Position numbers and translations under genes: made by a program
The notes under the pieces: generated by a model
Told to the model about the DNA's origin: nothing
The model's input: only the letters and a program-made list of their open reading frames with translations
Databases searched by the model: none
Shown: positions 15 through 57,598 of the stretch, in pieces
Numbering within the stretch: the stretch's first letter is position 1
Layout of the letters: each line of letters opens with the position of its first letter
Origin: Minisyncoccota bacterium
Lineage (GTDB): Bacteria; Patescibacteriota; Minisyncoccia; Minisyncoccales; JAQTVQ01
NCBI GenBank assembly: GCA_041657385.1
Contig: JBBABZ010000001.1
Location: forward strand, 29,821 to 93,820
Direction: 5' to 3'
DNA: 64,000 nucleotides

Positions 15-1079
15 ATGCGCAAAGCTTTATCGCGCTTCGGAAACTCTTTGGACATCGTCCAGATCAAAAAGAAAATGAAGATCCATATCCATACCGATCT
101 GCCGGACGATGTGATCGCCGCCATAAAACAAAAAGGCCAAATTCTTACTTTGAGGACGGAAGATATGGCTAAAGAAATTGTCGGCGAGCCTTCGATAAAA
201 AAAGTTTCCATTGGATTGATCACCGATCCTCTCGCTAATTTAACCGATAAGATCATCGAACGCTACGATATAGAGATCGTCCAATACGTTTACGACTGGC
301 CGGAAGAAAATATGCTGCGAGGAGAAAATATCTATCAAAAAATGAGAGATGCCGCGAGCAAGGGAATAGCCAATCTGCCAAAAACTTCCCAGCCGAGCCC
401 CAAAGATTTTCTGGATGCTTTCAAGAAAAGGCTTAGCCAGGGATATAAAGAGGTCCTTTGTATTAATTTTTCTTCCAAGCTGTCCGGCGGATACAATTCC
501 GCCTGCCAGGCAAGGAACTTGCTCCCCGAAGAGCAAAAACAAAAAATCCATATATTCGACTCCCTTAATGCCGCCGCGGGCCAGGCTTTGATCGTTTTAA
601 AAGCCATTGAATTTATCCAAATGCAGAAAAATATAAAAGAAATTTTAATTGAGCTTAAAAAAGAATCCGATCGGGTCAAATTATACGGAATGCCCCAAGA
701 TCCGAAATGGCTGGAGTGGGGAGGCCGCATCAGCCACAGCCAAGCCCAATGGCTAAGGCGCCTTCAAAAGATCAGGGTTAACCCTTTGCTGGGGATCAAA
801 AATGGAAAAATAGAAAAGATAGGATTCAGCACCGGAACGAAAGAAATGTCCGAAGCCATTTTTAAAAAAATTCTTTCCGAAACTAAAAAACTTAGAAAAG
901 AGAACAAAAATATCCGAGTGGTCATCACTCATTGCGATAATCTGGAAGGAGCCCAAAAACTTAAAGAGATGCTAAGGCAGGAAAACTTCGAAGTTTCTTT
1001 CGTCAATTTGACCGACTCGATCATCGGAGTCCATGTGGGCCCGGGAGCATTGATAGCGGCATGGACGGAGATCGATTAA
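15..1079 (+). CDS. DegV family (FakB-like) fatty-acid-binding protein. The N-terminus runs to the window edge; the true start may be the internal ATG near position 75.
   Basis: C-terminal IIGVHVGPGALIAAWTEID and central LPKTSQPSP...FSSKLSGGYN blocks are typical of DegV. Paralogous to the ORF at 13873-14742. Confidence 0.7.
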   Translation: MRKALSRFGNSLDIVQIKKKMKIHIHTDLPDDVIAAIKQKGQILTLRTEDMAKEIVGEPSIKKVSIGLITDPLANLTDKIIERYDIEIVQYVYDWPEENMLRGENIYQKMRDAASKGIANLPKTSQPSPKDFLDAFKKRLSQGYKEVLCINFSSKLSGGYNSACQARNLLPEEQKQKIHIFDSLNAAAGQALIVLKAIEFIQMQKNIKEILIELKKESDRVKLYGMPQDPKWLEWGGRISHSQAQWLRRLQKIRVNPLLGIKNGKIEKIGFSTGTKEMSEAIFKKILSETKKLRKENKNIRVVITHCDNLEGAQKLKEMLRQENFEVSFVNLTDSIIGVHVGPGALIAAWTEID

Positions 1080-1113
1080 AAATCAAAAAATTGAAAATTA
1101 AAAATTCACACTT

Positions 1114-2235
1114 ATGTATATAAAAGGAGTAGGAATGACAAAATTCGATTACAGCCAAAAACCATGGTGGAAATTTGCCTATGAAGCGGCTTTGGAAGCG
1201 CTGGAAGATGCAAAGATGAGATCGTCCCAGCTTGATGCCATTGTTTTAAGCACTATTTCCAATGCAGGAGGCGGAGAGCATCAAACTCATAAAATTTCTT
1301 TGATCTCCGATCTATTCAAAACCCACGTCCCTATCATTGAAACTCCTTCCGTTTGCTCGGGCGGAGGAGTGGCCTTTTGGACGGCTAACCGGCTCGGCTT
1401 TAAAAACATTCTGGTTTTGAGCGGAGAAAAAGCGGTGGATAACCGCACTGAAATTACAACCGACCTGATCATGTCGGCCGCCGAACGCACAGTAGAACAA
1501 ACAGAGGGTATGATCTTTCCCGCGCAGAATGCCCTTATCTGGCAGAACTACATGAAAAAATACGGAGCCACAATGGACGATCTTTCCTTGATTGCTTACA
1601 AAAATCACCAAAATGCGGCCCTTAATCCCAAAGCTTATTACTATAAAAGAACGATGACCCTGGAAGATATTAAAAAATCTCCGGAAGTCGCTTCGCCCTT
1701 GCGCTTGATGGATTGCTCTATGTCGATCAACGGGGGAGCGGCCGTGGTCCTAACCCAGGAAAAAACCGAAGTGGAAGTGGCCGGCTCCGGTTTTGCCACC
1801 GATTATTTGCTTACTTTCGGCCGCGAAGAAACCGACCATTTTAAGGCTACGGAATTGGCAGCCAAGATCGCCTACGAACAAGCGGGCATTTCTCCAAAAG
1901 ATATTAATGTCGCCGAACTGCATGATGCTTTCACGCCGATAGAGCTTTTTTCCTACGAAGATCTGGGTTTCGCGCCAAGAGGCCATGGAGCCGAGCTTAT
2001 AAGATCCGGCAAGATAAATTTGGGAGGAGAGTTCCCGATCAATTCTTCCGGCGGATTAAAAGCCAAAGGCCATCCGATCTCGGTTACGGGCTTGGCGCAG
2101 ATCTACGAAATAACGAAACAGCTTCGAGGGCAGTGCGGCGAACGCCAAGCAAAAAACGCCAGCATCGGATTGTGCCAGAATATCGGCGGAGCGGGAGGAA
2201 GCATTACCGTGAATATTTTGAGAAAGGTTAAATAG
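1114..2235 (+). CDS. Thiolase-superfamily protein of SCP-x/archaeal type (acetyl-CoA C-acetyltransferase-like), the type that partners with DUF35 proteins
   Basis: Thiolase-like fold with a CSGGG nucleophile region, a C-terminal GHPISVTGL histidine motif and length near 370 aa. Lies next to a DUF35 gene. Confidence 0.7.
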   Translation: MYIKGVGMTKFDYSQKPWWKFAYEAALEALEDAKMRSSQLDAIVLSTISNAGGGEHQTHKISLISDLFKTHVPIIETPSVCSGGGVAFWTANRLGFKNILVLSGEKAVDNRTEITTDLIMSAAERTVEQTEGMIFPAQNALIWQNYMKKYGATMDDLSLIAYKNHQNAALNPKAYYYKRTMTLEDIKKSPEVASPLRLMDCSMSINGGAAVVLTQEKTEVEVAGSGFATDYLLTFGREETDHFKATELAAKIAYEQAGISPKDINVAELHDAFTPIELFSYEDLGFAPRGHGAELIRSGKINLGGEFPINSSGGLKAKGHPISVTGLAQIYEITKQLRGQCGERQAKNASIGLCQNIGGAGGSITVNILRKVK

Positions 2236-3870: not shown

Positions 3871-4608
3871 ATGAAAAACAAAATTGTTTTGATAACCGGA
3901 GCGTCGCAGGGAATAGGCAAAGCGATCGCCCTGAAATTCGCAGCGCTTGGCGCGCAAATCGCGCTTAACGACATTCCCAGCCAGGAAGAAAATTTAAAGA
4001 CCGCCAAATCGGAAATAGAAAAGCTCGGAGCCAAAGCCGAATATTTTATGGCCGACGTTTCCAAATTCGATGAAGTGGAAAAAATGATGGCCGGCATTAA
4101 AGAAAAATTCGGAGGCCTGGATGTTCTGGTGAACAACGCCGGCATTGCCAAGGATAGGACATTAGCCAAAATGACCGTTGAAGAATGGCAAAAAGTGATT
4201 GATATTGATTTGACTAGCGTTTTTAATTGCTCCAAACTAGCTTTGCCAATGCTTGTCCCGAACCAAGGAAGCATAGTCAGTCTTTCTTCGGTAGTCGGGC
4301 AGGAAGGAAATTTCGGACAGACCAATTACTCCGCAGCCAAAGCTGGCATTATTGGATTCACTAAATCATTGGCCAAAGAAGTCGGAAGGTTCGGCGTCAG
4401 GGTCAATGCGGTTGCTCCCGGATTTATTGAAACAAAAATGGCTGAAGCCATTCCCGAACAATTGAAAGCTACCGTTAAGCAGCTGACCTCTTTAGGAAGG
4501 TTCGGCCGGCCCGAAGAAGTGGCCAGCGTAATTGCCTTTCTTGCTTCGCCGGATGCTAGCTTTGTGACTGGAGTGGTTCTGAACATTGATGGAGGGCTGG
4601 CGATTTAA
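3871..4608 (+). CDS. fabG: 3-oxoacyl-[ACP] reductase / short-chain dehydrogenase
   Basis: Contains the [12 protein letters not shown] Rossmann motif, NNAG, and the S...YSAAKAG catalytic triad region. Start taken at the ATG at 3871, just after the upstream stop. Confidence 0.85.
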
Positions 4609-4710
4609 GCGAAAAGCTAAAAGCGAAAAGTGTAAAATAAACGAACGAATATTTTACGCTTTGCACTTTTGTTTTGCACTTTTCGCTTTACCTGCCTGCC
4701 GGCAGGCAGG
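4609..4710. repeat. Intergenic palindromic element (GCGNAAAG-unit arms) ending in the 20-bp GC palindrome CCTGCCTGCCGGCAGGCAGG (4691-4710)
   Basis: Arms gcgaaaagctaaaagcgaaaagtgtaaaat / attttacgctttgcacttttgttttgcacttttcgcttta are inverted complements. The perfect GC palindrome is at 4691-4710. Confidence 0.8.
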
Positions 4711-5817: not shown

Positions 5818-5958
5818 GGCAAAACTAGGTAAAGTGAAAAAGCGTAAAGTGCAAAGCGAAAAGCGCAAAACAACAGTGCAAAATTTAAAATATTCGTTCG
5901 CTGTTTTTAGCTTTTCGCTGTTGCTTTACGCTTTGCGCTTTTAGCTTTACGCTTAATC
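5818..5958. repeat. Intergenic palindromic element of the GCGTAAAG/GCGAAAAG-unit family
   Basis: Left arm aaagcgtaaagtgcaaagcgaaaagcgcaaaacaacagtg, centre aaaatttaaaatattcgttcg, right arm ctgtttttagcttttcgctgttgctttacgctttgcgcttttagctttacgctt. The element ends 3 bp before the next ATG. Confidence 0.8.
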
Positions 5959-7462: not shown

Positions 7463-7562
7463 TAAAAAGCGTAAAGTGCAAAGCGAAAAGCGCAAAACAA
7501 CAGTGTAAAGCTAAAAGCAACGAACGGATATTTTACACTTTTCGCTTTACGCTTTGCACTTA
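7463..7562. repeat. Intergenic palindromic element of the GCGTAAAG-unit family
   Basis: aaagcgtaaagtgcaaagcgaaaagcgcaaaacaacagtg ... cgaacggatattttacacttttcgctttacgctttgcact is a near-identical left arm to the copy at 5818. Confidence 0.8.
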
Positions 7563-7571
7563 ATATCTCCT

Positions 7572-8510
7572 ATGTTTGAAACTAACAAACTGACACAACT
7601 TCTCGGCATTGAGTATCCCGTCATCCAAGGCGGTATGGCTGGCATTTCCGAATCAAAACTGGTTTCGGCTGTTTCCAATGCCGGAGGATTAGGCACCATT
7701 GGCGCAGGATTGATGCCGGCTTCTTGGGTGGAGCAGGAGATCCAAAAAACCCGCCAGCTGACTTCAAAACCTTTTGCCGTAAATCTTTTTATGCAAAACC
7801 AGAAGATTGAAGAAATAGTCAAAGCCATCATCAAAAATAAAGTTCCGATCGTCTTCATCGGAGGCGGCAATCCGATGCTGGTTATGCCTTATTTAAAAAG
7901 CGCGGGCATCAAAACGATCCCGGTCGTCCCTTCTCCCAGGCTTGCCAAAAAAATGGAAGAAAACGACGCCGACGCAATAGTTGTTGAAGGGGTAGAATCA
8001 GGAGGCCATCTTGGGCCCAACACCACTTTTTGCTTGATCCCGCAAACCGTAGAGCTGGTTAAAAAAATCCCGATTATTGCCGCCGGAGGCATTTTTGACG
8101 GACAAACCGCGGCGATGGCGATGGCTGCCGGAGCTGACGGCGTCCAAATAGGCACCCGCTTTTTGGCCACCCCTGAATGCATCATCTCCCAAAGCTATAA
8201 GCAAAAGATCGTCGACTCTTCAGCCGATGATATTGAAATTGTTCTGGCTTTTACCGGCCATCCCTTGCGCGTGATCAAAAACAAATGGGCCGAAGATATG
8301 AAAAAATTGGAAACAAAAAATGTTTTTCCCGAAGAGTTGAACGCGGGAAAGATCGCCGGATCCCTAGGAGGAGAAAATGTCGATAATATCCCTCTTTTAG
8401 CCGGGCTTTGCGCGGCCAGCATTAAAGATATAAAATCTTGCCAAGCGATCATTGAAGAGATCGCCAGCTCTTTAAAAAAATATGAACAAAGCCGTATCAA
8501 CGATCTGTAA
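7572..8510 (+). CDS. fabK: Enoyl-[ACP] reductase II / nitronate monooxygenase family
   Basis: YPVIQGGMAGISESKLVSAVSNAGGLGTIGAG and VEGVESGGHLG motifs. The first ATG is at 7572. Confidence 0.7.
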   Translation: MFETNKLTQLLGIEYPVIQGGMAGISESKLVSAVSNAGGLGTIGAGLMPASWVEQEIQKTRQLTSKPFAVNLFMQNQKIEEIVKAIIKNKVPIVFIGGGNPMLVMPYLKSAGIKTIPVVPSPRLAKKMEENDADAIVVEGVESGGHLGPNTTFCLIPQTVELVKKIPIIAAGGIFDGQTAAMAMAAGADGVQIGTRFLATPECIISQSYKQKIVDSSADDIEIVLAFTGHPLRVIKNKWAEDMKKLETKNVFPEELNAGKIAGSLGGENVDNIPLLAGLCAASIKDIKSCQAIIEEIASSLKKYEQSRINDL

Positions 8511-9135
8511 AGTATTGCTCAAACCCCTGATCGACCAATTGTTCATTAAAAAAGTGAATGGATTGGAAAATCTGCCAAAAAGTAATTTCATTTTAGCCGC
8601 AAATCACCAAAGCAATTTGGACCATGTGATCATCGGATCGTTTTGCGTGCCAAGAAGTTTCAAATTCATAGGCCAGGTGGATGGGCACAAGGGAATAAGT
8701 AAATTACTGGTTGATTTATTTTACGGTTTTTTCGGAGTTATTCCCTTAGACCGGGGCGACAGCGGATCTAAAAAATCGGCTATTAAAAAAGCTGTAGAAT
8801 CTTTAAAAAAAGGCTACATCATTGGAATTTATCCAGAAGGCACTCGTACTCGCAGCGGCGAATTGGGAGAAGCTAAGCCTGGCGTGGCTAAAATATTTTT
8901 GGGAAGCGGCGCGCCGATCGTTCCAATAGCGATCAAAGGAACTTTCGAATTATTCCCTCCTCACGGAAAATTGAAAATAAAACGCATAGTGGAAGTCGAG
9001 ATCGGCCGGCCTATTTATTTTAAAAAAGAATTCAAAGCCGCTCAAAATTTGTCTTACCAGTCAGAAAAATATAAAAAACTTTGCCAAGGGATATCCGATA
9101 AAGTAATGGTAAAAATTTCCGATCTGATAAAATAA
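8482..9135 (+). CDS. plsC: 1-acyl-sn-glycerol-3-phosphate acyltransferase
   Basis: HX4D motif (NHQSNLD) and the YPEGTRTRSG block are typical of LPLAT/PlsC. Overlaps the upstream gene by 29 nt. Confidence 0.7.
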   Translation: MNKAVSTICKVLLKPLIDQLFIKKVNGLENLPKSNFILAANHQSNLDHVIIGSFCVPRSFKFIGQVDGHKGISKLLVDLFYGFFGVIPLDRGDSGSKKSAIKKAVESLKKGYIIGIYPEGTRTRSGELGEAKPGVAKIFLGSGAPIVPIAIKGTFELFPPHGKLKIKRIVEVEIGRPIYFKKEFKAAQNLSYQSEKYKKLCQGISDKVMVKISDLIK

Positions 9136-9140
9136 TAGAT

Positions 9141-10676
9141 ATGCCAAAAATAAAAAAAATATTGATCGCCAACAGGGGAGAGGTGGCCCTGCGGGTCATC
9201 CGAACCTGCAAAGAGATGGGGATCAAAACGGTCGCCCTTTGCCCGATGCCGGGCCAGGAAAAATTCTTTTTGGAAACAAAATTAGCCGATGAATATCGAT
9301 TTTTAAATAAAGAAGGGGCTCAAGGCTATCTAGATGCCAAAAAAATCGTCGAAATAGCGAAAGAGGCAGAAGCCGACGCTATCCATCCGGGCTATGGCTT
9401 CCTTTCCGAAAATTGGAAATTCGCCGAACTTTGCCAAAAAAATAAGATCACCTTCATTGGGCCCAGTCCGGCAATTTTGAAAATTTTTGAGGATAAGATC
9501 AAGGCTAAAAAATTCGCCAAGCTTGCGGGCCTGCCCACCTTGCCGGCCAGCGCCGGGTCTGTCAAAACCCAAAAAGATCTTATGAAATGGGCGGAAAAGA
9601 TCGGCTCTCCTTTTGTTCTCAAAGCCCAGCGCGGCGGCGGGGGGATCGGCATAAGAATTATTGATGGAAAAATCACAGTGAACCAAATCTCCGAGATCTC
9701 TTCCGATATCCAAAGACAGATGTCGGTTTCTTTTGCTGACGCCGATTTCTTTTTGGAAAAATATCTGACCGAAGCCAAGCATATTGAATTTCAAATTCTA
9801 GGCGACGGAAAAAATTTCGTCCATCTGGGAGAAAGGGAATGCACCATCCAAAGAAGATTTCAAAAATTGCTGGAGGAAGCCCCGTCTTCTTTTCTTGATG
9901 AAAAATTAAGGAATAAAATGGGAAGCTTGGCGGTCGGCCTCGCCAAAAAATTAGGATATAAGGGCGCCGCCACGGTGGAATTTTTGATAGATAAAAACAA
10001 AAATTTTTATTTTATGGAGGTCAATCCGCGGCTTCAAGTAGAGCACCCGATCACCGAAGCCATTACCGGAGTTGATATCGTAGCCCAGCAGATAAAGATC
10101 AGCCAAGGCGAAGAGCTGGATTTCAAGCAAAAAGATATCCGCTTGAACGGCTGGGCTATAGAGGCCAGGATCAACGCCGAAGATCCCCAAAAAAAATTCC
10201 AGCCCGGGCCGGGCACGGTGCAAAAATACCTGCCGCCGGGAGGCCAGGGAATTTTTATGCATACCTTTTTGCAGCAAGGCCAGAAGATATATCCTCATTT
10301 TGACTCAATGCTGGCCAAGCTGATCGCCTGCGGCAAAACCCGCCAAGAGGCTATTTCCAGGCTCAACCGCGCCTTGGACGAATTGGTCATAGAAGGAGTA
10401 CCCACTACCGCTTCGTTCTTTAAAATCGTCCTCGCGGACAAATGTTTTCTAGGGGGAGATTTTTTTACTAATTTTATTGAACGGGAAGAGATCGTTCAAA
10501 AACTTGCCGAAGGGCCGGCCCAGATCATCTGCGATTCTTGCGACCTAGACGAAGAAGACATCGCCCAGATCATTTTTCAGGTTTATCAAAAAATGAAAAA
10601 AGAAAAAAAGACCGGATCACCGCAAAAAATTTCCAACTGGATCTTGTCCCAAAGGCTGAAAATGCTGGACAATTAG
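9141..10676 (+). CDS. accC: Biotin carboxylase subunit of acetyl-CoA carboxylase
   Basis: N-terminus KKILIANRGEVALRVIRTC, the ATP-grasp glycine loop QRGGGGIGIRI, and EVNPRLQVEHPITE. Confidence 0.9.
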   Translation: MPKIKKILIANRGEVALRVIRTCKEMGIKTVALCPMPGQEKFFLETKLADEYRFLNKEGAQGYLDAKKIVEIAKEAEADAIHPGYGFLSENWKFAELCQKNKITFIGPSPAILKIFEDKIKAKKFAKLAGLPTLPASAGSVKTQKDLMKWAEKIGSPFVLKAQRGGGGIGIRIIDGKITVNQISEISSDIQRQMSVSFADADFFLEKYLTEAKHIEFQILGDGKNFVHLGERECTIQRRFQKLLEEAPSSFLDEKLRNKMGSLAVGLAKKLGYKGAATVEFLIDKNKNFYFMEVNPRLQVEHPITEAITGVDIVAQQIKISQGEELDFKQKDIRLNGWAIEARINAEDPQKKFQPGPGTVQKYLPPGGQGIFMHTFLQQGQKIYPHFDSMLAKLIACGKTRQEAISRLNRALDELVIEGVPTTASFFKIVLADKCFLGGDFFTNFIEREEIVQKLAEGPAQIICDSCDLDEEDIAQIIFQVYQKMKKEKKTGSPQKISNWILSQRLKMLDN

Positions 10677-11120
10677 CTAAATCAAATGTCAAATCTCAAA
10701 AGTCAAAACCACAGCTTAAATCCTAAAAACGAACTAAAATTTCGCCGTTATCGCTTTTCCATTGATATTATCAATGCCAGCAAAGATTTCCCGAAAGAAC
10801 GGACATTTGATATTATCGCCAAACAGTTGCTAAGAAGTTCTACCAGTATAGGCGCGAATATTGTTGAGGTAAAATCTTCAAGCTCCCGCAGGGATTTTAT
10901 TAAATTTTATGAAATCGCTCTAAAATCCGCTAATGAAACAAAATATTGGCTTGGACTTTTAAGAGATGGTTTGAATTTTGACGGAGAAAAAATAAATATA
11001 TTCTTGGCTGAAGACGATGAGATATCAAAAATGATCGCCGCGAGCCTAATCACATTAAAAGGTAAAAGGCTTTAATCTATATGGTTTTGAGATTTGACTT
11101 TTGAGTTTTGAAATAAGCTT
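10676..11120. mobile_element. MITE-like element: inverted terminal repeats built from TCAAA(A/T)CTCAAAAGTCAAAACC subunits, carrying a four-helix-bundle gene
   Basis: Left arm tcaaatgtcaaatctcaaaagtcaaaaccaca (about 10683-10714) and right arm ggttttgagatttgacttttgagttttgaa (about 11081-11110) are inverted copies. An empty copy lies at 12185-12318. Confidence 0.5.
10686..11075 (+). CDS. Four-helix-bundle protein (23S rRNA intervening-sequence protein family, TIGR02436-like)
   Basis: Family blocks FPKERTFDIIAKQLLRSSTSIGANIVE and ALKSANETKYWLGLL. The ATG and first 17 or so codons lie inside the repeat arm. Confidence 0.55.
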   Translation: MSNLKSQNHSLNPKNELKFRRYRFSIDIINASKDFPKERTFDIIAKQLLRSSTSIGANIVEVKSSSSRRDFIKFYEIALKSANETKYWLGLLRDGLNFDGEKINIFLAEDDEISKMIAASLITLKGKRL

Positions 11121-11495
11121 ATGAAAATAAAGATCAAAGATAAAATTTACGATATTGAGATTTCCGAATCGCAAGAGGGGATCGTTATGATCAAGGTTAA
11201 TGATCAAAATTTTGTTTTCCAAGAAAAAAACACTGTTAAAAATATACCGATCAAAGGGTCTAATGAAAGCGCGAAAATAGCTAAAAAAGAAATTAGGGCG
11301 CCGATAACGGGAACTATTTCCAAAATTTTTACCAAAGAAGGAGAGATGATCGAACCGGGACAGAAAATTTTAAGCCTTTCGGCCATGAAAATGGAAAACG
11401 AAATAATTTCCGAAGGCAAAGGCAAGATTAAAAAAATCAATGTAAAGGAAGGGCAGCTGGTAAAGGCGAATGAGCTGCTGGCAGAACTTGAATAA
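11121..11495 (+). CDS. accB: Biotin carboxyl carrier protein (biotinyl/lipoyl domain)
   Basis: C-terminal EGEMIEPGQKILSLSAMKMENEI with the AMKM biotinylation motif. Confidence 0.75.
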   Translation: MKIKIKDKIYDIEISESQEGIVMIKVNDQNFVFQEKNTVKNIPIKGSNESAKIAKKEIRAPITGTISKIFTKEGEMIEPGQKILSLSAMKMENEIISEGKGKIKKINVKEGQLVKANELLAELE

Positions 11496-11529
11496 CTGCG
11501 TAAATTTTCAATTTACAATTCTCAATTTT

Positions 11530-11549
11530 CCTGCCTACCGGCAGGCAGG
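11530..11549. repeat. GC palindrome CCTGCCTACCGGCAGGCAGG (one mismatch), flanked by inverted AT-rich arms (aattttcaatttacaatt / gaaattgaaaattgtaaatt)
   Basis: Read directly from the sequence. The flanking arms at about 11497-11529 and 11606-11640 are inverted copies. Confidence 0.75.
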
Positions 11550-11652
11550 CAATGAATGTTTCAATTTTCAAAAATTCCGTTATCGTCATTGAAGCATTGG
11601 AACATTGTAATTTCATTGGAAATTGAAAATTGTAAATTAAAAATTCACGCTT

Positions 11653-12183
11653 ATGATCATAAAATCATTCTCTCAGCTAGATTCTACCAACACCAAGGCC
11701 AAAGAGCTCGCCCAAAACGGCGCCGCGCCTTGGACTGTTGTCATTGCCGATGAACAAACCAACGGTTATGGCAAAGACCAGCGCGGCTGGTTTTCTCCAA
11801 AAGGCGGCCTTTATTTTTCCATCATCCTTCCTGAAAGCAATATCGACGACCTTCAAACGCTAACCATTTTAGCGGCTTTTGCAGCGGCAAAAACAATAAT
11901 GGAAGAATTCAATTTGCAAACTTTTATCAAGCTGCCGAACGATGTCTGGACGAACAATAAAAAAATAGCGGGCATCCTGACCGAAAACATCATTTCCGGA
12001 AAAAAAATAAAACATTCGGTCATGGGCATAGGCCTCGATACCAATATTGAAAAATTCCCAAAAGAGTTGGCAAGTATCGCCACTTCGCTTAGAATAGAGC
12101 TAGGCAGGGAAGTGGACGATAAAGACCTAATGGAAAAGATAGTAGGAGAACTTAAAAAACAGTTAGAGACGATAAGCAGATAA
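11653..12183 (+). CDS. birA: Biotin-[acetyl-CoA-carboxylase] ligase, catalytic domain only
   Basis: GYGKDQRGWFSPKGGLYFS matches the BirA GRGRxGRxWxSPxGxLYxS signature. No HTH domain is present. Confidence 0.75.
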   Translation: MIIKSFSQLDSTNTKAKELAQNGAAPWTVVIADEQTNGYGKDQRGWFSPKGGLYFSIILPESNIDDLQTLTILAAFAAAKTIMEEFNLQTFIKLPNDVWTNNKKIAGILTENIISGKKIKHSVMGIGLDTNIEKFPKELASIATSLRIELGREVDDKDLMEKIVGELKKQLETISR

Positions 12184-12184
12184 A

Positions 12185-12318
12185 TGGCTCAAAAATCAAA
12201 TCTCAAAATTCAAAACCACAACTAAAAACCAAAAAGCTAAGCGTTATTTAATAAATTATAAAAAGTTAAAAAGTTTTAAATTATAGTTTTGAGCTTTGAC
12301 TTTTAAGTTTTGAATTAG
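12185..12318. repeat. Empty copy of the TCAAATCTCAAAA(G/T)TCAAAACC inverted-repeat (MITE-like) element
   Basis: Left arm tcaaatctcaaaattcaaaaccacaact, right arm agttttgagctttgacttttaagttttgaa, about 60 bp of AT-rich filler between them. Confidence 0.55.
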
Positions 12319-12324
12319 AATACT

Positions 12325-13863
12325 ATGTCTTTTGAAAAACAGATCAAAAAACTAAATGAGGAGATCGCGGCGCTCGACAGTCCGGAGATGGCTGCCAAAC
12401 AGCACCAAAAAGGAAAGCTGACGGCGCGGGAAAGGATCGGCATCCTCTTAGACAAAGATAGTTTCGTTGAACTTAATCCATTCGTCCAATCCCGCTTCAA
12501 TGATTATGGAATGGACCAAAAAAAATTTCCAGGAGACGCGGTGGTCTCCGGTTTTGGCAAGATCAACGGACGGCAAGTCTGCGTCTACAGCCAGGACTTT
12601 TCTAAAATCGGCGGTTCTTTGGGAGAAATGCACGGCCAAAAAATAATTAACGCCATAAAAATGGCCAGGCAAACCGGCTGCCCGACGATCGGGATCATCG
12701 ACAGCGGAGGCGCCCGCATCCAAGAAGGAATAGCCAGCCTTGACGGCTATGCCGGAATTTTCAGGGAGATGGTCAAGGCTTCCGGCATTATTCCTCAAAT
12801 TTCAATTATCCTGGGCCCTTCAGCCGGCGGAGCTTCTTACGCCCCCGGACTTTCCGACTTTATTTTTATGGTTGAAGGAATTTCTCAAATGTATATCACC
12901 GGGCCGGAAGTGATAAAATCCGTAACCGGGGAAAATATTTCTTTTAATGATCTTGGCGGAGCTTCAGTCCACTCTTTGCAAAGCGGATGCGCCCATTTCG
13001 TCTCCCAAAATGAAAACGAATGTTTGGAAGGCGTTAAAAAACTTTTGGGTTATCTGCCGCAAAATAATTTGGAAAATCCTCCGGCTAAAAACTCTTTCGG
13101 CACGGCCGATCTCTGTCCTAAACTCCTGGAAATAGTACCGGAAGAAGAAGGGAAGGGATACGACATGAAAGAAGTGGTTAAGGAAATTTTCGATCTTGAT
13201 TCTTTTTTTGAAGTCCAAGCCGGATTCGCCCCCAACTCTATTGCCGGCTTTGCCCGCTTAGGAGGGCAAACCGTCGGCATCGCGGCCAATCAGACCAAAT
13301 CAATGGCCGGAACCCTGGACGTCAATTCTTCGGATAAGATCGCTAGATTTGTCCGGCTTTGCGATGCTTTTAACATCCCCATCATCAATTTGATCGATAC
13401 CCCCGGATATCTTCCCGGCACCGACCAGGAGCACAAAGGCATTATCCGGCACGGCGCTAAAATCCTGTATGCTTATGCCGAAGCCAGCGTTCCCAAGATC
13501 AGTCTTATTTTAAGAAAAGCCTTCGGCGGAGCCTATATCGCCCTGGCTTCCAAAGAGCTGGGATATGACAAAGTCATTGCCTGGCCTTCCGCCCAGATCG
13601 GAGTGATGGGTCCGAAACAAGCGGTAAAAATAATTTTCCACAGAGAATTGGAAAACAGCCAGGACCCGGACAGGCTTGAAAAAGAAAAAATCCTCGAACT
13701 GTCCGAAACTTTTTTGAGCCCGTGGCAAGCGGCCCGGCTAGGAAAATTAGATTTGATCATCGATCCCCAAGAAACCCGGTCCGTATTATTCAAACTGCTG
13801 GAATCCCTGCTCAACAAACGCGAAAGCAAAGCCCCTAGAAAGCACGGTAATATTCCTCTATAA
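12325..13863 (+). CDS. Acyl-CoA carboxylase carboxyltransferase subunit (fused AccD/AccA-type, PccB-like)
   Basis: 512 aa. Family blocks DSGGARIQEG, the GPSAGGASY oxyanion region, and AFGGAYIAL in the second half. Confidence 0.85.
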   Translation: MSFEKQIKKLNEEIAALDSPEMAAKQHQKGKLTARERIGILLDKDSFVELNPFVQSRFNDYGMDQKKFPGDAVVSGFGKINGRQVCVYSQDFSKIGGSLGEMHGQKIINAIKMARQTGCPTIGIIDSGGARIQEGIASLDGYAGIFREMVKASGIIPQISIILGPSAGGASYAPGLSDFIFMVEGISQMYITGPEVIKSVTGENISFNDLGGASVHSLQSGCAHFVSQNENECLEGVKKLLGYLPQNNLENPPAKNSFGTADLCPKLLEIVPEEEGKGYDMKEVVKEIFDLDSFFEVQAGFAPNSIAGFARLGGQTVGIAANQTKSMAGTLDVNSSDKIARFVRLCDAFNIPIINLIDTPGYLPGTDQEHKGIIRHGAKILYAYAEASVPKISLILRKAFGGAYIALASKELGYDKVIAWPSAQIGVMGPKQAVKIIFHRELENSQDPDRLEKEKILELSETFLSPWQAARLGKLDLIIDPQETRSVLFKLLESLLNKRESKAPRKHGNIPL

Positions 13864-13872
13864 TATCAATAT

Positions 13873-14742
13873 ATGACAAAGATCAGCCTTATTGTCGGCC
13901 AAAGCGCTTCTCTGCCAAAACAAATAATGGAAAGATATTCTCTGACCATGATCCCTTTTATTGTTGATTGGAAAGCCGATAAGGATAACCTTGACCCGAA
14001 AAGCATTTTTCAAAAAATGGCCGATGCCGAAGCTGGCAATGCAAGCGATCTTCCTAAAACATCCCATCCCGCGCCATGGCTCTTCAAGAAATTTTTTGAA
14101 GAAAAAATTACAAATTCCGATTCGGTTCTTTTTATTTCTCTAAGCTCGAAGCTGTCAGCCACTTCCGAGGCCGCCTCATTTGGAAAAGAAATGCTGAAAC
14201 CGGGAGATAAAAAAAAGGTTTTTATTTTCGATTGCCAAAATGCCAGCGCCGGAGAAGGCTTGATCGCAATTAAAGTTGCGGAGCTGATCAGTCAAGGCAG
14301 GCCGGTTGAGGAGGCTGTTAAAGAGCTGGAAATATTCAGACAAAAAGTCTGCACCTTGGCCAGCCTTAAAGATTTGAAATGGCTGGAAAAAGGAGGAAGG
14401 ATAAGCCATTTAACCAAATCAATATTATCCACTTTCCAAAAACTAGGGATCAGCCTTCTTTTCGGGATTAAAAACGGCCGCGTTGAAGCTGTTAGCTTGG
14501 GTTTTAAACAAAAAACTCAAGCCGCGGTTATTTTCGATTTTTTCAAAAAAAACTGCAAAAAGGGGAAATTCCGAATTGCCATAGCTCACGCTCAAAACGA
14601 GCAGGCCGCAGACGAACTTAAAAATTTGATCCAAAAAAAATGTCCCTCATCTGAAATAATTTTCACCGGGCCGATCGATAATATTATTGGAATACATGTC
14701 GGACCAGGCGCCCTGATTTGCGCCTGGCATCCGCTAGACTAA
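13873..14742 (+). CDS. DegV family (FakB-like) fatty-acid-binding protein
   Basis: C-terminal IIGIHVGPGALICAW, internal DLPKTSHP and FISLSSKLSATS blocks. Paralog of the ORF at 15-1079. Confidence 0.8.
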   Translation: MTKISLIVGQSASLPKQIMERYSLTMIPFIVDWKADKDNLDPKSIFQKMADAEAGNASDLPKTSHPAPWLFKKFFEEKITNSDSVLFISLSSKLSATSEAASFGKEMLKPGDKKKVFIFDCQNASAGEGLIAIKVAELISQGRPVEEAVKELEIFRQKVCTLASLKDLKWLEKGGRISHLTKSILSTFQKLGISLLFGIKNGRVEAVSLGFKQKTQAAVIFDFFKKNCKKGKFRIAIAHAQNEQAADELKNLIQKKCPSSEIIFTGPIDNIIGIHVGPGALICAWHPLD

Positions 14743-14746
14743 TACA

Positions 14747-15427
14747 ATGCCCGCTTCTTATTTTTTAATATCCCTTTTCTCTTACCTGCTCGGTTCAATA
14801 CCGGCCGCTATTTTAATTGGAAAACTTTTCACCAAGAAAAATTTTCAAGAAGAGGGAAGCGGCAATCTTGGCGCCACCAACGCTTTAAGAATCGTCAGCA
14901 AAGAAAAAGGGAAATTCTGGGGAACCGCGGCCTTTCTTGCCGTTTTTCTTTTTGACGCCAGCAAAGCAGTGGCCGCTTGTTTGATCGCAACGAACTTTAT
15001 TCCCGATCGGACCGCAGCTTTAACTCTGGCCGCCTTTTTTACCGTTCTTGGCCATAATTATTCATTGTTTTTAAAATTCCGGGGAGGGAGGGGAGCTGCT
15101 TCCTTGCTTGGCGTCCTCTTATTTTTCGATTGGCGCGTCTTTTTAGCTTGGGTTGGAACTTTTTTGGCCGTAGCCGTTATCTTTGAGGCTGTTGAAAGCA
15201 AAAAAATCGACAAAAAAATAGTGGCCAGAGCCGCTAACCGCCAAATTATCGGCCGTCTTGTTGGAGAGGTCTTAGCCCTTATTCCCATCTACCTTCTCAA
15301 TCAAACTCTTTTTTGGCCAACCCTTTTCGCTACGCCATTGATCCTTATCAAACATAAAGAAAGGGTGAAAAGACAGTTGCAAGAGATAGCTGAAAGCGTA
15401 AAGCTAAAAGCGCAAAGCGTAAAGTAA
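14747..15427 (+). CDS. plsY: Glycerol-3-phosphate acyltransferase
   Basis: LLGSIPAAILIGK and GSGNLGATNALR motifs. Polytopic membrane protein. The C-terminal tail of about 25 aa reads into the repeat element. Confidence 0.8.
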   Translation: MPASYFLISLFSYLLGSIPAAILIGKLFTKKNFQEEGSGNLGATNALRIVSKEKGKFWGTAAFLAVFLFDASKAVAACLIATNFIPDRTAALTLAAFFTVLGHNYSLFLKFRGGRGAASLLGVLLFFDWRVFLAWVGTFLAVAVIFEAVESKKIDKKIVARAANRQIIGRLVGEVLALIPIYLLNQTLFWPTLFATPLILIKHKERVKRQLQEIAESVKLKAQSVK

Positions 15428-15552
15428 CAGCGCCTGCCTGCCGGTAGGCAGGTAAAGCTAAAAGCAACGAACGGATATTTTTAGCTTTACGCTTTTGTTT
15501 TGCGCTTTTCGCTTTGCACTTTACGCTTCCTTGCTTTACGCTTCCTTACGCT
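15405..15552. repeat. Intergenic palindromic element (GCGTAAAG-unit arms) with a central GC palindrome CCTGCCTGCCGGTAGGCAGG (15433-15452)
   Basis: gcgtaaagctaaaagcgcaaagcgtaaagtaacagcg - palindrome - taaagctaaaagcaacgaacggatatttttagctttacgcttttgttttgcgcttttcgctttgcactttacgc. Confidence 0.8.
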
Positions 15553-15599
15553 TTTTTGATTTTTTGACGGTTTTCTGATAAAATAACCCTAGAAATTTC

Positions 15600-15673
15600 G
15601 CCCTCGTGGTGTAATGGATAACATGTCTGCCTTCGAAGCAGAAGACTTGCAGGTTCGACTCCTGCCGAGGGCA
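15600..15673 (+). tRNA. tRNA-Arg (anticodon TCG)
   Basis: Manual cloverleaf. Acceptor GCCCTCG/CGAGGGC, D-arm GTGTAATGGATAACAT, anticodon stem TCTGC/GCAGA with loop CTTCGAA, T-arm GCAGG-TTCGACT-CCTGC. Confidence 0.8.
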
Positions 15674-15755
15674 CGTCCGGTCTTGACCGGACGCCCGGTC
15701 GGATGACCGGGCGGATACTGTTGCCGGCTATTAATTTTTAGGTAGCAACCAAACA

Positions 15756-16163
15756 ATGGTCTTGACTAAAAACAAAAAAAATTTCATTATCTTAGCGGGA
15801 GCCCTGTCTCTGTTTTTGTTTTCCGGAGGTGAAGCCTTAGCCGCTGGGATTGTTCCTTGCGGAGGAACGGATTGCACTCTTTGCGATCTCTTTAAAATGG
15901 TTGAGAACATCGTGAACCAGATATTTTATTATCTGGTTCCATCAATCGCCGTTTTGCTTGTTGTTTATGGCGGATTTTTATTAATTACAGCCAGGGGAGA
16001 TGGCAACTCTGAAAATGTGAAAAAAGCTAAAGCCGCTTTAACCGCTGTTGCCGTAGGGTTGCTTATAATTTACGGTTCATATATCGCTGTAAATGAAATA
16101 CTAAGAGCCGTGGGCGTAAAAACAGTCTGGCAGCAAGGGTGGTACCAAATTGATTGCCAGTAA
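15756..16163 (+). CDS. VirB2/TrbC-like pilin-domain protein (signal peptide, PCGG-C-x2-C motif, two-TM hairpin)
   Basis: Cleavable signal ending LAAG, a cysteine cluster, then TM1 LVPSIAVLLVVYGGFLLI, a basic loop and TM2 ALTAVAVGLLIIYGSY. Same architecture as the C-termini of the ORFs at 25162 and 28156. Confidence 0.45.
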   Translation: MVLTKNKKNFIILAGALSLFLFSGGEALAAGIVPCGGTDCTLCDLFKMVENIVNQIFYYLVPSIAVLLVVYGGFLLITARGDGNSENVKKAKAALTAVAVGLLIIYGSYIAVNEILRAVGVKTVWQQGWYQIDCQ

Positions 16164-21567: not shown

Positions 21568-21640
21568 ATTTTTATATCTAACCTTACCCGCAAAAAGGTT
21601 TGAAAATTAAAAATTGAAAATTAAAAATTTTTAGCGGAGG

Positions 21641-50364: not shown

Positions 50365-50892
50365 TTGGGAAATGAGTCTGACTCTGCAGAAAAATTGATG
50401 GAAATACAAACGACCGGGTATAAAAAAACTCAAGAACTTGGCAATATTTTTGCCCAGGAAATTTTAAGGAAGGGGCCGCAGGAAAAAGCGGTCGTTCTAG
50501 CATTATCTGGCGACCTGGGAGGAGGGAAAACCACTTTTTCCCAGGGTTTTGCGAAGGGGCTGGGAGTCAAAAATAGAATAACAAGCCCCACCTTTACGAT
50601 TTTTAAAAGGTTTAAGATCAGTTTGGTCCGCGGCAGGGTTCCTCAAAAAATAGATTTTGAAAGTTTTTATCATTTCGATTGTTATCGGCTTTTGGGGCCG
50701 AAAGATATTTTAGAGTTGGGATTTAAGGAGATTGTTTCATCCCCTAAAAATATTATTTTACTGGAATGGGCGGAAAGAGTTAAGAAGGTATTGCCGAAAG
50801 AAACCATCTGGCTGAATTTTGACTTTGTGAGCCCGAACAAAAGGAAGATCGTGTTAAGCGAAAAGCGCAAAGCGAAAAGCGCAAAACAATAG
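50365..50892 (+). CDS. tsaE: tRNA threonylcarbamoyladenosine biosynthesis protein TsaE
   Basis: LSGDLGGGKTTFSQG P-loop, SPTFTI, and HFDCYRL. Confidence 0.75.
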   Translation: MGNESDSAEKLMEIQTTGYKKTQELGNIFAQEILRKGPQEKAVVLALSGDLGGGKTTFSQGFAKGLGVKNRITSPTFTIFKRFKISLVRGRVPQKIDFESFYHFDCYRLLGPKDILELGFKEIVSSPKNIILLEWAERVKKVLPKETIWLNFDFVSPNKRKIVLSEKRKAKSAKQ

Positions 50893-50975
50893 CGCCTGCC
50901 TGCCGGTAGGCAGGTAAAGTTTAAAATATCCGTTTGTTGCTTTACGCTTTTCGCTTTTAGCTTTACGCTTAACAA
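50857..50975. repeat. Intergenic palindromic element (GCGAAAAG-unit arms) with a central GC palindrome CCTGCCTGCCGGTAGGCAGG (50895-50914)
   Basis: gcgaaaagcgcaaagcgaaaagcgcaaaacaatagcg - palindrome - taaagtttaaaatatccgtttgttgctttacgcttttcgcttttagctttacgctt. The left arm encodes the C-terminal tail of TsaE. Confidence 0.8.
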
Positions 50976-53091: not shown

Positions 53092-53133
53092 ATTTATTTT
53101 ACGCTTTTAGCTTTACGCTTTTAGCTTAAATGA
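53092..53133. repeat. Short copy of the CTTTACGC/GCGTAAAG repeat family
   Basis: ttacgcttttagctttacgcttttagctt lies immediately upstream of the HK gene. Confidence 0.6.
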
Positions 53134-55197: not shown

Positions 55198-56073
55198 ATG
55201 CCCGAGCTTCCTGAAGTGGAAACAATAGTCAAGGGTTTGAGATCAAAGGTCCTTCAAAGGACCTTTATTGATCTTTGGACGGACGCGGAAAAATTAATAA
55301 AATTTCCTAAAGATTTTAGTAAATTTAAAAAATCGGCTATCGGGCTGAAGATCGAAAATGTCAGCCGCCGCGGAAAGAATATTATTTTTGATCTATCGGA
55401 AGGAAAAATTCTTTTGATCCATCAAAAAATGACAGGACATTTATTATTGGGAAAATGGGAAAAAGCGGGATTAGGCTGGAGGGCTGCGGTTTTTGGGCCG
55501 ATAGCCGATGATCCGATGAACAGATTTTTGCATTTGATCTTTATGCTGGACAACGGCCAGATGCTTGCCTTGTCCGATGTGCGTAAATTTGCCAAAGTAG
55601 AATTGCGCGAGGCTAAAGATTTTTACTCTTCGAAATATTTTAATGACCTTGGCCCGGAGCCGCTGGACCGAAAATTTTCTTTGGAAATTTTCAAAATCAG
55701 GATTCAAGGGAAGACAGGGAAGATCAAGCAGATCCTTATGGATCAAAGCGTGATAGCGGGAATAGGCAATATCTATGCCGATGAGATCCTGTGGCAGGCA
55801 AAGATAAGTCCTTTCAGGCCCGCGAACAAGATTTCCGATCAAGAGATGGAATTAATTTATTCAGCGATGAAAGAAATTTTAAAAAAAGCCATTAAAGCCA
55901 AGGGGTCCAGCATGTCCGATTACCGAACGCTTTCAGGGGAAAAAGGAAAATTCCAATTGATGAGAAAGGTTTATCGCCGTACCGGAGAGGAATGCCCGGC
56001 GTGCAAAGGGAAAATAAAAAGAGAAGTAATAGGAGGCCGGTCAGCTCATTTCTGTCCTGTATGCCAGAAGTAA
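55198..56073 (+). CDS. mutM: Formamidopyrimidine-DNA glycosylase
   Basis: MPELPEVETI N-terminus, H2TH region, and a C-terminal zinc finger CPACKGKI...C. Confidence 0.85.
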   Translation: MPELPEVETIVKGLRSKVLQRTFIDLWTDAEKLIKFPKDFSKFKKSAIGLKIENVSRRGKNIIFDLSEGKILLIHQKMTGHLLLGKWEKAGLGWRAAVFGPIADDPMNRFLHLIFMLDNGQMLALSDVRKFAKVELREAKDFYSSKYFNDLGPEPLDRKFSLEIFKIRIQGKTGKIKQILMDQSVIAGIGNIYADEILWQAKISPFRPANKISDQEMELIYSAMKEILKKAIKAKGSSMSDYRTLSGEKGKFQLMRKVYRRTGEECPACKGKIKREVIGGRSAHFCPVCQK

Positions 56074-56173
56074 GGAGTTAGGAGCCAGGAATTAGGAATT
56101 AGCTTGTAGGCGTTTCATTTCGCGAAAGGAAAAATACGAAGGCAAGCCCCTACAAGCTACAAGCTCGCAAATT

Positions 56174-57445: not shown

Positions 57446-57598
57446 TAGCATAAATGCGTGAAAGCGTAAAGTGAAAAGCGAAAAGCGTAAAACAAAAGCG
57501 TAAAATTTAAAATATTCGCTTCTTCGTCATTCGTTGCTTTTAGCTTTACGCTGTTATTTTACGCTTTGCTTTTTTAGCTTTACGCTTTTAGGGAAGAT
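57446..57598. repeat. Intergenic palindromic element of the GCGTAAAG-unit family
   Basis: gcgtgaaagcgtaaagtgaaaagcgaaaagcgtaaaacaaaagcgtaaaatttaaaatattcg ... gcttttagctttacgctgttattttacgctttgcttttttagctttacgcttttag. Confidence 0.8.

Follow-up and report, generated by a model that had tools for sequence, protein, structure and literature searches.

The 64,000-nucleotide stretch analysed here (positions 29,821 to 93,820 of contig JBBABZ010000001.1, from a Minisyncoccota bacterium; hereafter the window) carries, between accC and accB, a 445-bp insert that encloses a gene for a 129-residue four-helix-bundle (4HB) protein, and a shorter copy, without the gene, between birA and the carboxyltransferase gene. 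The insert is probably a cassette of the type known from intervening sequences (IVSs) of ribosomal RNA (rRNA), lodged in this case in an operon spacer, with the copy of about 130 bp as its derivative and both as members of a larger hairpin population. The arrangement recurs widely: at least five phyla have 4HB genes that lie in operon spacers, in sense with the host genes, and are bracketed by heptamer arrays complementary to each other.

The genomic setting of the 4HB gene is a fatty-acid/biotin cluster in which accC, the 4HB gene and accB are all on the plus strand; the insertion site is the accC/accB spacer and not a 23S or 16S rRNA helix. The initial annotation of this DNA had described a 4HB gene between inverted arms in this spacer, with its ATG inside one arm, and this is borne out, at sizes of about 445 bp for the filled element (outer bounds approximately 10673-11121) and about 130 bp for the empty one. 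The arm subunit had been given there as a 22-mer. Matches to that 22-mer do recur (10689 on the plus strand with no mismatch, 12196 on the plus strand with one and 11090 on the minus strand with three; three matches against 0.00 expected from 100 shuffles), but the excess of self-identity at a lag of seven nucleotides identifies the unit as the heptamer TCAAA(A/T)N, present four to five times. The left arm reads TCAAATG, TCAAATC, TCAAAAG and TCAAAAC in succession, with the 4HB ATG within it, and residues 1-11 of the protein are arm-encoded and predicted to be disordered. The heptamer variants seem to occur in the same order along both arms, although four units are not enough for a judgement.

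The arms of the filled element are 80-91% complementary, depending on the register. In the folded 451-nt RNA of the cassette they pair in both the minimum-free-energy and the centroid structures (-101.6 kcal/mol, z -3.0). As in rRNA IVSs, the inverted repeats close a stem around an open reading frame (ORF) of the S23p family that is in sense with the host genes, and as in the Coxiella-type IVS, tandem heptamers lie in the 5' side of the stem beside the start codon. No promoter-like site was found upstream of 10686, and no second 4HB gene was found within the 64-kb window. At gathering thresholds, Rfam placed no RNA family on any hairpin, and only two tRNAs were detected in the window.

The 4HB protein matches PF05635 (23S_rRNA_IVP; E 8.6e-23, 81 bits against a cut-off of 33.8) and TIGR02436 ("four helix bundle protein"; 88.5 bits against a cut-off of 24), and the link to the four-helix-bundle proteins of rRNA IVSs drawn in the initial annotation is correct, given PF05635 and the Coxiella IVS. 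Among solved structures, PDB 2RLD is matched at E 3e-17; by profile, the values are 3.7e-42 for 2RLD and 1.8e-15 for 2GSC, and the profile did not reach 4DWL, the Avd protein of diversity-generating retroelements (DGRs), at E <= 1. An AlphaFold2 model built with 30 homologues (pLDDT 88.7) has helices at residues 13-32, 39-64, 68-95 and 100-125, with the arm-encoded N-terminal tail predicted to be disordered. Foldseek TM-scores are 0.79/0.90 to 2RLD, 0.75/0.83 to 2GSC and 0.70/0.81 to Avd 4DWL, the last both for Avd alone and for Avd in the DGR ribonucleoprotein; as modelled, the 4HB protein is Avd-like in fold.

The family motif has been given as GxxRxxxSxxxNxxE (PMC3936711). In the segment QLLRSSTSIGANIVE it is represented by R50-S54-N58-E61, and the first motif position is Q47, not G. 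In an alignment of 13 sequences from bacteria of the candidate phyla radiation (CPR) and four other phyla, Q47, S54, N58 and E84 are invariant. Since 2RLD and 2GSC are each deposited with five chains, the 4HB protein is by analogy probably a pentamer. Nothing in its sequence indicates a nuclease or recombinase; that it may bind its own arm RNA or DNA is a guess.

The empty copy retains remnants of both ends of the 4HB ORF next to its arms (Table 1). A global alignment of the two copies with free internal gaps scores 138.5, against 62 +/- 6 for shuffles (maximum 79), which upholds the earlier view of the pair as one family, filled and empty. The arms of the empty copy (12189-12229 and 12273-12313; 41 nt, 76% complementary) enclose no ORF, the whole (12187-12316) measures about 130 bp, and its 3' part ends 7 nt 5' of the carboxyltransferase start. 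Because both ORF ends are retained, this copy is evidently an internal-deletion derivative of the same family, now decaying, much as a miniature inverted-repeat transposable element derives from its parent, and the hairpin was made from the cassette and not the reverse. Right arms of window elements also hold sigma-70-like hexamer pairs facing the downstream gene (12296-12324, TTGACT-17-AATACT; 11630-11665, TTGTAA-16-TATGAT), the -35-like boxes being created by CTTTGAC-type heptamers.

More than 2000 homologues of the 129-residue protein were detected at E <= 0.001, and the listed matches that are named by source are mostly from the CPR. Inverted arms of heptamer period flank all eight CPR 4HB genes that were examined, and the repeat unit is specific to each (TTCTAAT, AAAAATN, AAATTTG, CGAGTTA or TCAAAAN). 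The further 4HB genes that came to light in contigs fetched for three of the homologues are all co-oriented with their neighbours. In the subfamily of the window gene, the TCAAAAN arm is translated as a conserved N-terminal tail, S-K/N-L-K-x-Q-N-H. Several cassettes may occur close together, with four among type IV secretion system (T4SS) genes within 5.4 kb in one contig (L087, 5063-10411) and two among type IV pilus genes in another (L089, 6710-10387). In this set of CPR contigs, which also includes L090 (13486-19008), gene-less heptamer hairpins lie between ribosomal protein and elongation-factor genes, at S12/S7, at EF-G/EF-Tu and immediately 3' of S10.

A tblastn search of plasmids returned 34 records with a 4HB gene, mostly from Nostocales, with others from Bacteroidota, Chloroflexota and Treponema. 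Inverted tandem heptamers flank the gene in six of six plasmid loci (L161-L166, from Dolichospermum, Nostoc, Bernardetia, Planktothrix, Chlorohelix and Treponema), spanning Cyanobacteriota, Bacteroidota, Chloroflexota and Spirochaetota. The arms are (TAATTCG)4 ... (CGAATTA)4 in both Dolichospermum and Nostoc, (ATTAGTG)12 in Bernardetia, (CCCCAAT)6(CGTAAAT)4 in Planktothrix and (CTCTCCG)n in Treponema. The plasmid genes are co-oriented with the downstream neighbour in all six cases and with the upstream neighbour in five. Their contexts include drmD/4HB/MmeI (a DISARM locus), helicase/4HB/...methyltransferase and DUF1156/4HB/HEPN.

An alignment-seeded metagenome scan added 80 loci. Their proteins are 35-58% identical to that of the window, the GC content of the hosts ranges over 28-64%, and 71 of the loci have enough flanking sequence for analysis. 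A lag-7 score of at least 15/21 is reached by 52 upstream flanks (73%), 55 downstream flanks (77%) and, counting either flank, 65 of the 71 loci, whereas at most 10 flanks reach it at any other lag (4-11) and only 24 of 1208 control windows (2%; 150 nt, at least 400 nt away in the same loci) do so. The two flanks are mutually complementary at z >= 4 in 55 of 71 loci. The two arms of one element have a mean complementarity score of 18.6, compared with 9.5 when arms of different elements are paired, and own arms beat all 20 random cross pairings in 44 of 70 cases. The median ungapped arm is 35 nt long at 81% identity. The inner end of the 5' arm lies a median of 5 nt from the start codon, which it overlaps in 32 of 77 elements, and the 4HB start follows the stop of the upstream gene at a median of 35 nt. 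Upstream neighbours are on the same strand in 54 of 65 cases and downstream neighbours in 56 of 64. The palindromes mostly have the purine-rich arm first (52 of 60 5' arms, 56 of 65 3' arms), an order that reads the same on either strand.

Arm similarity tracks protein identity only above approximately 75% (19.1 against a background of about 8.5). Since it is lost below that level, the arms must change much faster than the ORF; they nevertheless remain self-complementary and 7-periodic. By this comparison, the 4HB gene is the constant core of the element type and the arms are its variable part. This departs from the initial annotation, which took the 4HB gene to be cargo, although it is the gene that is constant across phyla while the arm sequence varies. 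The arms are fast-evolving tandem heptamer arrays and not fixed terminal inverted repeats. The other contexts in which 4HB genes were found are T4SS, type IV pilus, DISARM, restriction-modification and ribosomal operons. No acc genes were found near about 90 other 4HB loci, and a functional link between the 4HB gene and the acc genes was rejected on that ground. No transposase was found in the 4HB neighbourhoods examined, and the filled version encodes the 4HB protein only.

Within the window, the two acc-cluster copies are part of a larger set. Self-identity at lag 7 (threshold 16/21) marks 123 positions, against at most 5 at other lags from 3 to 12; with this excess, the window has tandem 7-nt units in intergenic DNA, as do the short tandemly repeated repetitive (STRR) sequences. 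The signal maps to at least 13 intergenic sites, the two acc-cluster copies included, and 12 of the 13 lie between co-directional genes. Hairpins of the AAAGCGN flavour are present in six to eight copies, with RNA stabilities from -35 to -72 kcal/mol. The pair described in the initial annotation is one instance of a dense population of hairpins with heptamer arms throughout the window, which that annotation had missed; the TCAAAAN flavour itself has only two copies in 64 kb.

Table 1. Coordinates of the acc genes, the two copies of the element and other heptamer-arm features in the window
Feature	Positions	Strand	Remarks
accC	9141-10676	+	Pfam
4HB gene, 129 aa	10686-11075	+	PF05635 / TIGR02436, S23p family
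accB	11121-11495	+	Pfam
BPL/birA-like ligase gene	11653-12183	+	Pfam
Carboxyltransferase gene	12325-13863	+	Pfam
Filled element, left (5') arm	10679-10711	+	about 4.5 imperfect TCAAA(A/T)N heptamers; contains the 4HB ATG (10686)
Filled element, right (3') arm	11082-11115	+	T-rich, complements left arm; 6 nt 5' of accB start
Empty copy, 5' part	12189-12240	+	left arm and remnant of first ~15 4HB codons; 43/52 vs 10682-10733
Empty copy, 3' part	12258-12317	+	remnant of last ~8 codons and right arm; 51/60 vs 11054-11115
Hairpin, AATTTTC/GAAAATT flavour, accB/birA spacer	11498-11650	+	arms 31 nt, 90% complementary; unrelated to the TCAAAAN pair; nested GC palindrome 11530-11549
AAAGCGN gene-less hairpin, SDR/OCD spacer	4602-4690		followed by GC palindrome, 4691-4710
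AAAGCGN gene-less hairpin	5837-5957		-50 kcal/mol; loop in inverted orientation
AAAGCGN gene-less hairpin	7464-7565		left end 33/36 nt (92%) vs copy 5834-5869
AAAGCGN gene-less hairpin	15384-15530		-72 kcal/mol; nested GC palindrome 15433-15452
AAAGCGN gene-less hairpin	50850-50975		GC palindrome nested at same internal place as in 15384-15530
AAAGCGN gene-less hairpin	57458-57590		91% over 58 nt vs copy 5839-5896
Hairpin, AGGAATT / CTTGTAG units	56063-56170		lag-7 signal
Half-arm remnant, GAAAATT flavour	1075-1115		ends ...AAAAATTCACACTT right before a start codon
Half-arm remnants similar to 1075-1115	21595-21634, 53098-53130		

Syntenic clusters from related Patescibacteria were obtained by a scan with AccC, taking one genome per species, and in none of them does a 4HB gene lie between accC and accB; relatives without the element in this spacer thus exist, as the initial annotation had envisaged. 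In the close relative L007 (AccC 92%) the accC/accB spacer has a gene-less hairpin, and in L008 (AccC 83%) it is about 90 nt long with no heptamer hairpin. In two others (L009 and L014, AccC approximately 65%) the operon is compact: its gaps measure 9-50 nt, and a lag-7 signal is entirely absent. Given its absence from this spacer in all four, the cassette is not a native part of the operon.

Syntenic spacers in the window, L007 and L008 tend to be occupied, and the flavours differ: the FabA-NMO / NMO2 spacer has AAAGCGN in the window, CCCAATG in L007 and AATTTTC in L008, and the birA / carboxyltransferase spacer has the empty TCAAAAN copy in the window, CCCAATG in L007 and CAAAATG in L008. 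Traces of turnover are also present. The OCD/FabA spacer of L007 has an AAAGCGN arm remnant beside a newer AATTTTC element, and upstream of L007 accB lies TTTTTGATTTTTAAATTAAGCTT, seemingly what is left of a TCAAAAN right arm. L007 7544-7759 duplicates L007 8759-8950 (168 of 192 positions identical), and about 62 nt of the duplicate (7544-7605, a copy of 8759-8820) are from the 3' coding end of birA, now just downstream of accC. The AATTTTC element of the window (11491-11645) has a homologue (114/130) in L007, where the spacer that holds it is not the orthologous one. Hairpins in this Paceibacterota lineage are, on this comparison of spacers, gained, copied and replaced quickly. By contrast with these differences between species, six same-strain contigs from different samples are 99.96-100% identical across the region, so the insertion is fixed in that population.

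No target-site duplication was seen at either copy in the window. Nor did any appear in 77 related elements, in which the longest flank repeat is 3.91 nt against 3.66 nt in controls; because the arm ends are fuzzy, duplications of 2-3 nt could have escaped notice.

Other observations concern the hairpins themselves. The regions 15394-15463 and 50856-50925 are 86% identical over 70 nt, nested 20-nt GC palindrome included, and the composite of hairpin and palindrome was copied as a unit. This GC-rich palindrome, CCTGCCTRCCGGYAGGCAGG, occurs in the window at 4691-4710, 11530-11549, 15433-15452 and 50895-50914, and in relatives at L007 1327, 2715 and 7715 and L008 8651; it is absent from the more distant relatives L009-L015. 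It forms an exact 20-nt indel between hairpin copies that are homologous otherwise, sits at differing internal positions in homologous elements of the window and L007, and behaves as an independent mini-insertion. Of the half-arm remnants in Table 1, the one at 21595 is of the GAAAATT flavour and the one at 53098 is a half-copy of an AAAGCGN hairpin.

Hairpin loops with different arm flavours share the motif AACGAACG(A/G)(ATATTTT) in either orientation (forward at 4641-4656, 7518-7533 and 15465-15480, reverse at 5885-5900 and 50922-50937), and it is also found at L007 7664-7676, 8213-8225 and 8880-8892 despite unrelated arms. The motif resembles AAAAACGAAC, codons 13-16 of the 4HB ORF, but derivation from it could not be shown. 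Nor could it be shown that the AAAGCGN loops (AACGAACGRATATTTT) are remnants of 4HB ORF ends; a metagenomic 4HB cassette with AAAGCGN arms (L187 786-1397, Ga0233423_10031979; 41% GC, alignment z 5-16) does share the arms. Since the arms of this cassette match the gene-less flavour of the window, a gene-bearing counterpart of the AAAGCGN family does exist. Scans of viral contigs with arm patterns returned 69 loci, none with a 4HB gene. Several high-GC viral contigs (L128, L135, L137 [IMGVR_UViG_3300037067_016065], L144, L134 and L127) have inverted arms of (AAAGCGG)4-5 with short or approximately 130-nt loops, up to -120 kcal/mol and no 4HB gene nearby, and one viral contig with AAAGCGG arms comes from the same metagenome as the window organism.

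The left arms of gene-less hairpins run into the 3' ends of host ORFs (15384-15427, 50850-50892 and 4602-4608): plsY and the gene at 50365-50892 take their final codons from such an arm, and the SDR gene takes its stop codon; the arm-supplied tail of plsY is not conserved in L008. Several window genes start 5-10 nt 3' of a T-rich hairpin arm, and the junction ...AAAAATTCACRCTT-ATG recurs at 1100-1116, 11639-11655 and L090 17219-17236. Shine-Dalgarno-like motifs are nearly absent upstream of about 60 gene starts in the window. The lack of one before the 4HB gene is therefore uninformative, as the organism hardly uses them, and their scarcity may explain why start codons directly against an arm are tolerated. 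In L007 (10498-10865, compared with window 13858-15760) degV and plsY, at 13873-15427 in the window, are missing between the carboxyltransferase gene and the tRNA/pilin genes, with a CCCAATG hairpin at the junction, which suggests that hairpins mark or mediate changes in gene content.

The IVS of Coxiella burnetii 23S rRNA is 428 nt long, with an inverted-repeat stem, an S23p ORF and two or three tandem GACAGAT heptamers (the number varies between strains) before the S23p start and inside the stem; it is removed by RNase III, whose cut falls where the first repeat begins (PMC4990558). In view of this shared layout and of the RNase III cut, the filled element is regarded as an IVS-type cassette that is co-transcribed and probably processed by RNase III. 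Co-orientation, tight spacing and the lack of a promoter-like site suggest that the cassette has no promoter of its own and would be carried on the transcript of the host operon. Folding predicts that, once transcribed, the 5' arm (A-rich) pairs with the 3' arm (U-rich) over about 30 bp, in a stem that closes the cassette as a whole. RNase III may then cut this stem, in the window by analogy with the Coxiella IVS only, and the cut would free a 4HB mRNA with a short leader and separate the upstream and downstream host cistrons. New copies would arise by DNA-level recombinational copying or replacement at hairpin-bearing spacers and not by cut-and-paste transposition, as is suggested by the flanking sequence copied along in L007, by copies nested in one another and by the absence of target-site duplications.

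Several points weigh against this interpretation. The window has one 4HB gene and about 12 gene-less hairpins in 64 kb, and the hairpins could therefore be an independent phenomenon, with 4HB genes landing in their loops. The proposed RNase III processing is argued from rRNA IVSs, and no RNase III gene motif was seen in the window, which at 64 kb is part of a genome and uninformative in this respect. The element has no link to a recombinase, a transposase or a reverse transcriptase, and neither ongoing movement nor heptamer slippage is visible among the six same-strain contigs. The RNA stem of the empty copy is weak (-16.3 kcal/mol, z -0.7), and as it is no better than shuffles, this copy may be inert. 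The orientation bias, finally, is only modest evidence, given that same-strand neighbours are common in bacteria.

The first of these points recurs in an explanation that treats hairpins and 4HB genes as two separate things, the hairpins arising by replication slippage in place and the 4HB genes being selfish genes that land or are retained in the loops. Besides the excess of gene-less hairpins of about 12 to 1, this would accommodate heptamer inverted pairs without a 4HB gene in high-GC viral contigs and at 70-75 Xanthomonas sites, as well as arm similarity that decays far faster than protein similarity. It is unlikely, however, given that 4HB genes at least 75% identical on different contigs share an arm flavour (19.1 against approximately 8.5), that the TCAAAAN arm belongs to conserved N-terminal coding sequence in many genomes of the window subfamily, that the empty copy keeps the ORF ends, and that the gene-less families comprise several copies that have loops in common and contain nested inserts, a pattern that slippage in place cannot produce. 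Equally, the hairpins might be native regulatory structures (terminators, attenuators, or sites that stabilise or process mRNA) and the 4HB protein an accessory or regulator of acetyl-CoA carboxylase. The hairpins do fit exactly into spacers and end 6-10 nt 5' of start codons, the three acc-cluster spacers are filled in the window and in L007, and in part in L008, and the Xanthomonas prototype XCC0516 also abuts a BCCP gene. In more distant relatives, however, the spacers of this operon measure 9-50 nt and are free of hairpins, the content of a given spacer is wholly different even where the flanking proteins of two genomes are 83-92% identical, all relatives lack the 4HB gene, and about 90 other 4HB loci have no acc genes nearby, which makes the Xanthomonas bccP neighbourhood probably a coincidence and this explanation quite unlikely.

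A classical miniature inverted-repeat transposable element (MITE), a non-autonomous DNA transposon that has terminal inverted repeats and depends on a transposase encoded elsewhere, and of which one copy had captured a 4HB passenger, would account for the inverted arms, the small size, the AT-richness, the intergenic position, the filled/empty pair and the multi-copy hairpin families of the window. It is very unlikely nonetheless: target-site duplications are absent at both copies and in the 77 related elements, the neighbourhoods examined contain no transposase, and variable arms around a gene family that is constant across phyla are the opposite of a fixed terminal repeat with variable cargo. 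The copying in L007 also took along 62 nt of flanking coding sequence, which transposition defined by terminal repeats would not. As neither duplications nor a transposase were found, "MITE" is only loosely apt; of the mobile element proposed in the initial annotation, multi-copy hairpins that have moved remain, and a strict MITE with a transposase parent does not. That annotation was right in spirit about a selfish, non-autonomous-looking pair, and wrong on MITE and cargo. The 4HB protein might instead be the Avd of a DGR. CPR genomes are rich in DGRs, and the fold is similar (TM-scores 0.70/0.81). PF05635 is also the Pfam family matched by Avd-like proteins, and has been read as an Avd-like DGR component (PMC10053308). 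With accC and accB as the flanking genes, no reverse transcriptase neighbour, no pair of long direct repeats of the template repeat/variable repeat (TR/VR) type in the 64-kb window and a profile that falls short of Avd 4DWL at E <= 1, such a role is effectively refuted for this locus and has next to no probability.

Compatible with an IVS-type cassette, but reaching much further, is the tentative and rather doubtful possibility that PF05635 cassettes with heptamer arms are the autonomous members of one palindromic class spanning phyla, with the 4HB protein as its trans-acting factor. The gene-less members of such a class would include CPR spacer hairpins, STRR arrays, Xanthomonas GGGAATC pairs and rRNA IVSs, and the Avd-like 4HB protein would recognise, maintain or propagate the arms, for example by recruiting a polymerase as Avd does the DGR reverse transcriptase. 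If true, this would amount to a mechanism of mobility or maintenance without a transposase. An older idea holds that the IVS ORF might aid mobility (PMC4990558).

The window thus probably shows an IVS-type 4HB cassette outside rRNA together with a deletion derivative, and the broader pattern is of greater interest. Three puzzles have long been kept apart, namely the nature of rRNA IVSs and their S23p ORFs, the abundance of heptamer repeats in some bacteria and the role of thousands of 4HB genes, and they become testable in culturable hosts (Xanthomonas XCC0516, Bacteroides BT_0352 and Nostoc). Where 4HB genes occur in cas, DISARM, restriction-modification, T4SS and DGR loci, they have been taken for functional partners, as in the case of 23S_rRNA_IVP genes in cas operons (PMC3936711). 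If they are passengers of operon spacers, guilt by association is misleading for these genes, and association studies may be counting passengers. For the CPR, it means that a strongly reduced genome still has dense, fast-turnover small elements within essential operons.

Elements of this kind can be compared with several known systems. Correia elements of Neisseria, enterobacterial ERIC sequences and REP/BIME are small inverted-repeat intergenic units that are co-transcribed and form RNA hairpins; Correia elements are RNase III substrates with fixed 26-bp terminal inverted repeats and TA duplications, and REPINs depend for their movement on a RAYT transposase that has REPs of its own on either side. 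The window hairpins resemble these in being multi-copy, strain-variable, nested and, probably, transcribed from spacers with their neighbours. Unlike Correia elements and REPINs, their arms are heptamer arrays, no duplication was seen, and the gene is a helical bundle without a known catalytic motif. REPINs (PMC3116915) belong with the other palindromic mini-elements in this comparison. Avd (PDB 4DWL and 8UB8) is similar in its four-helix-bundle fold and acts on nucleic acid with a polymerase; it differs in that no reverse transcriptase or TR/VR is near the 4HB gene and that sequence similarity is below detection.

The STRR heptamer repeats of cyanobacteria were reportedly described by Mazel and colleagues in 1990. 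TAACTGA heptamer repeats are known from Beggiatoaceae (PMC4679880). In Xanthomonas, 70-75 sites are convergent, hairpin-forming heptamer pairs, including those at groES/groEL, atpA/atpG, atpD/atpC and gltD/gltB (PMC4692102). One array of Xanthomonas campestris ATCC 33913, (GGGAATC)4 (repeat 15, 622956-622983; PMC4692102, S2 Table A), has a 17-nt overlap at the start codon of XCC0516 and is separated from bccP by 6 nt (PMC4692102 supplement). XCC0516 (PDB 2GSC) is the crystallised prototype of the 4HB family and adjoins the BCCP gene bccP, XCC0517, a gene neighbourhood like that of the window although the phylum is unrelated; the 4HB protein family is not mentioned in that paper (PMC4692102). 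STRR, GGGAATC and TAACTGA repeats are like the window arms in consisting of tandem 7-nt units, in being intergenic and in often lying near start codons, and a CCCCAAT-type unit flanks the Planktothrix 4HB gene, with CCCAATG units in L007. The window arrays differ from such simple sequence repeats in being short (4-6 units), imperfect and always paired as inverted arms, and papers on these repeats treat the heptamers as G-quadruplex or regulatory sequences, without a connection to PF05635. Full-text literature searches returned no paper on a general link between 4HB genes and heptamer arms, which is not proof of novelty.

The closest comparison is with rRNA IVSs. IVSs with ORFs are also known from Leptospira, Brucella and Xanthomonas (as cited in PMC4990558), and in the CPR, 23S_rRNA_IVP ORFs have been noted within 16S and 23S insertions (PMC11270868). 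IVSs lie in helix 45 or 25 of 23S rRNA, whereas the cassette lies in a protein-operon spacer, with a gene-less derivative 1.1 kb away and many flavours in one genome; RNase III excision is experimental for IVSs and predicted by analogy for the window cassette. In both, an S23p/PF05635 ORF lies in the loop and in sense, an inverted-repeat stem encloses it and heptamers directly precede the start codon, and both are spread sporadically, are suspected of being selfish and measure approximately 430-450 nt.

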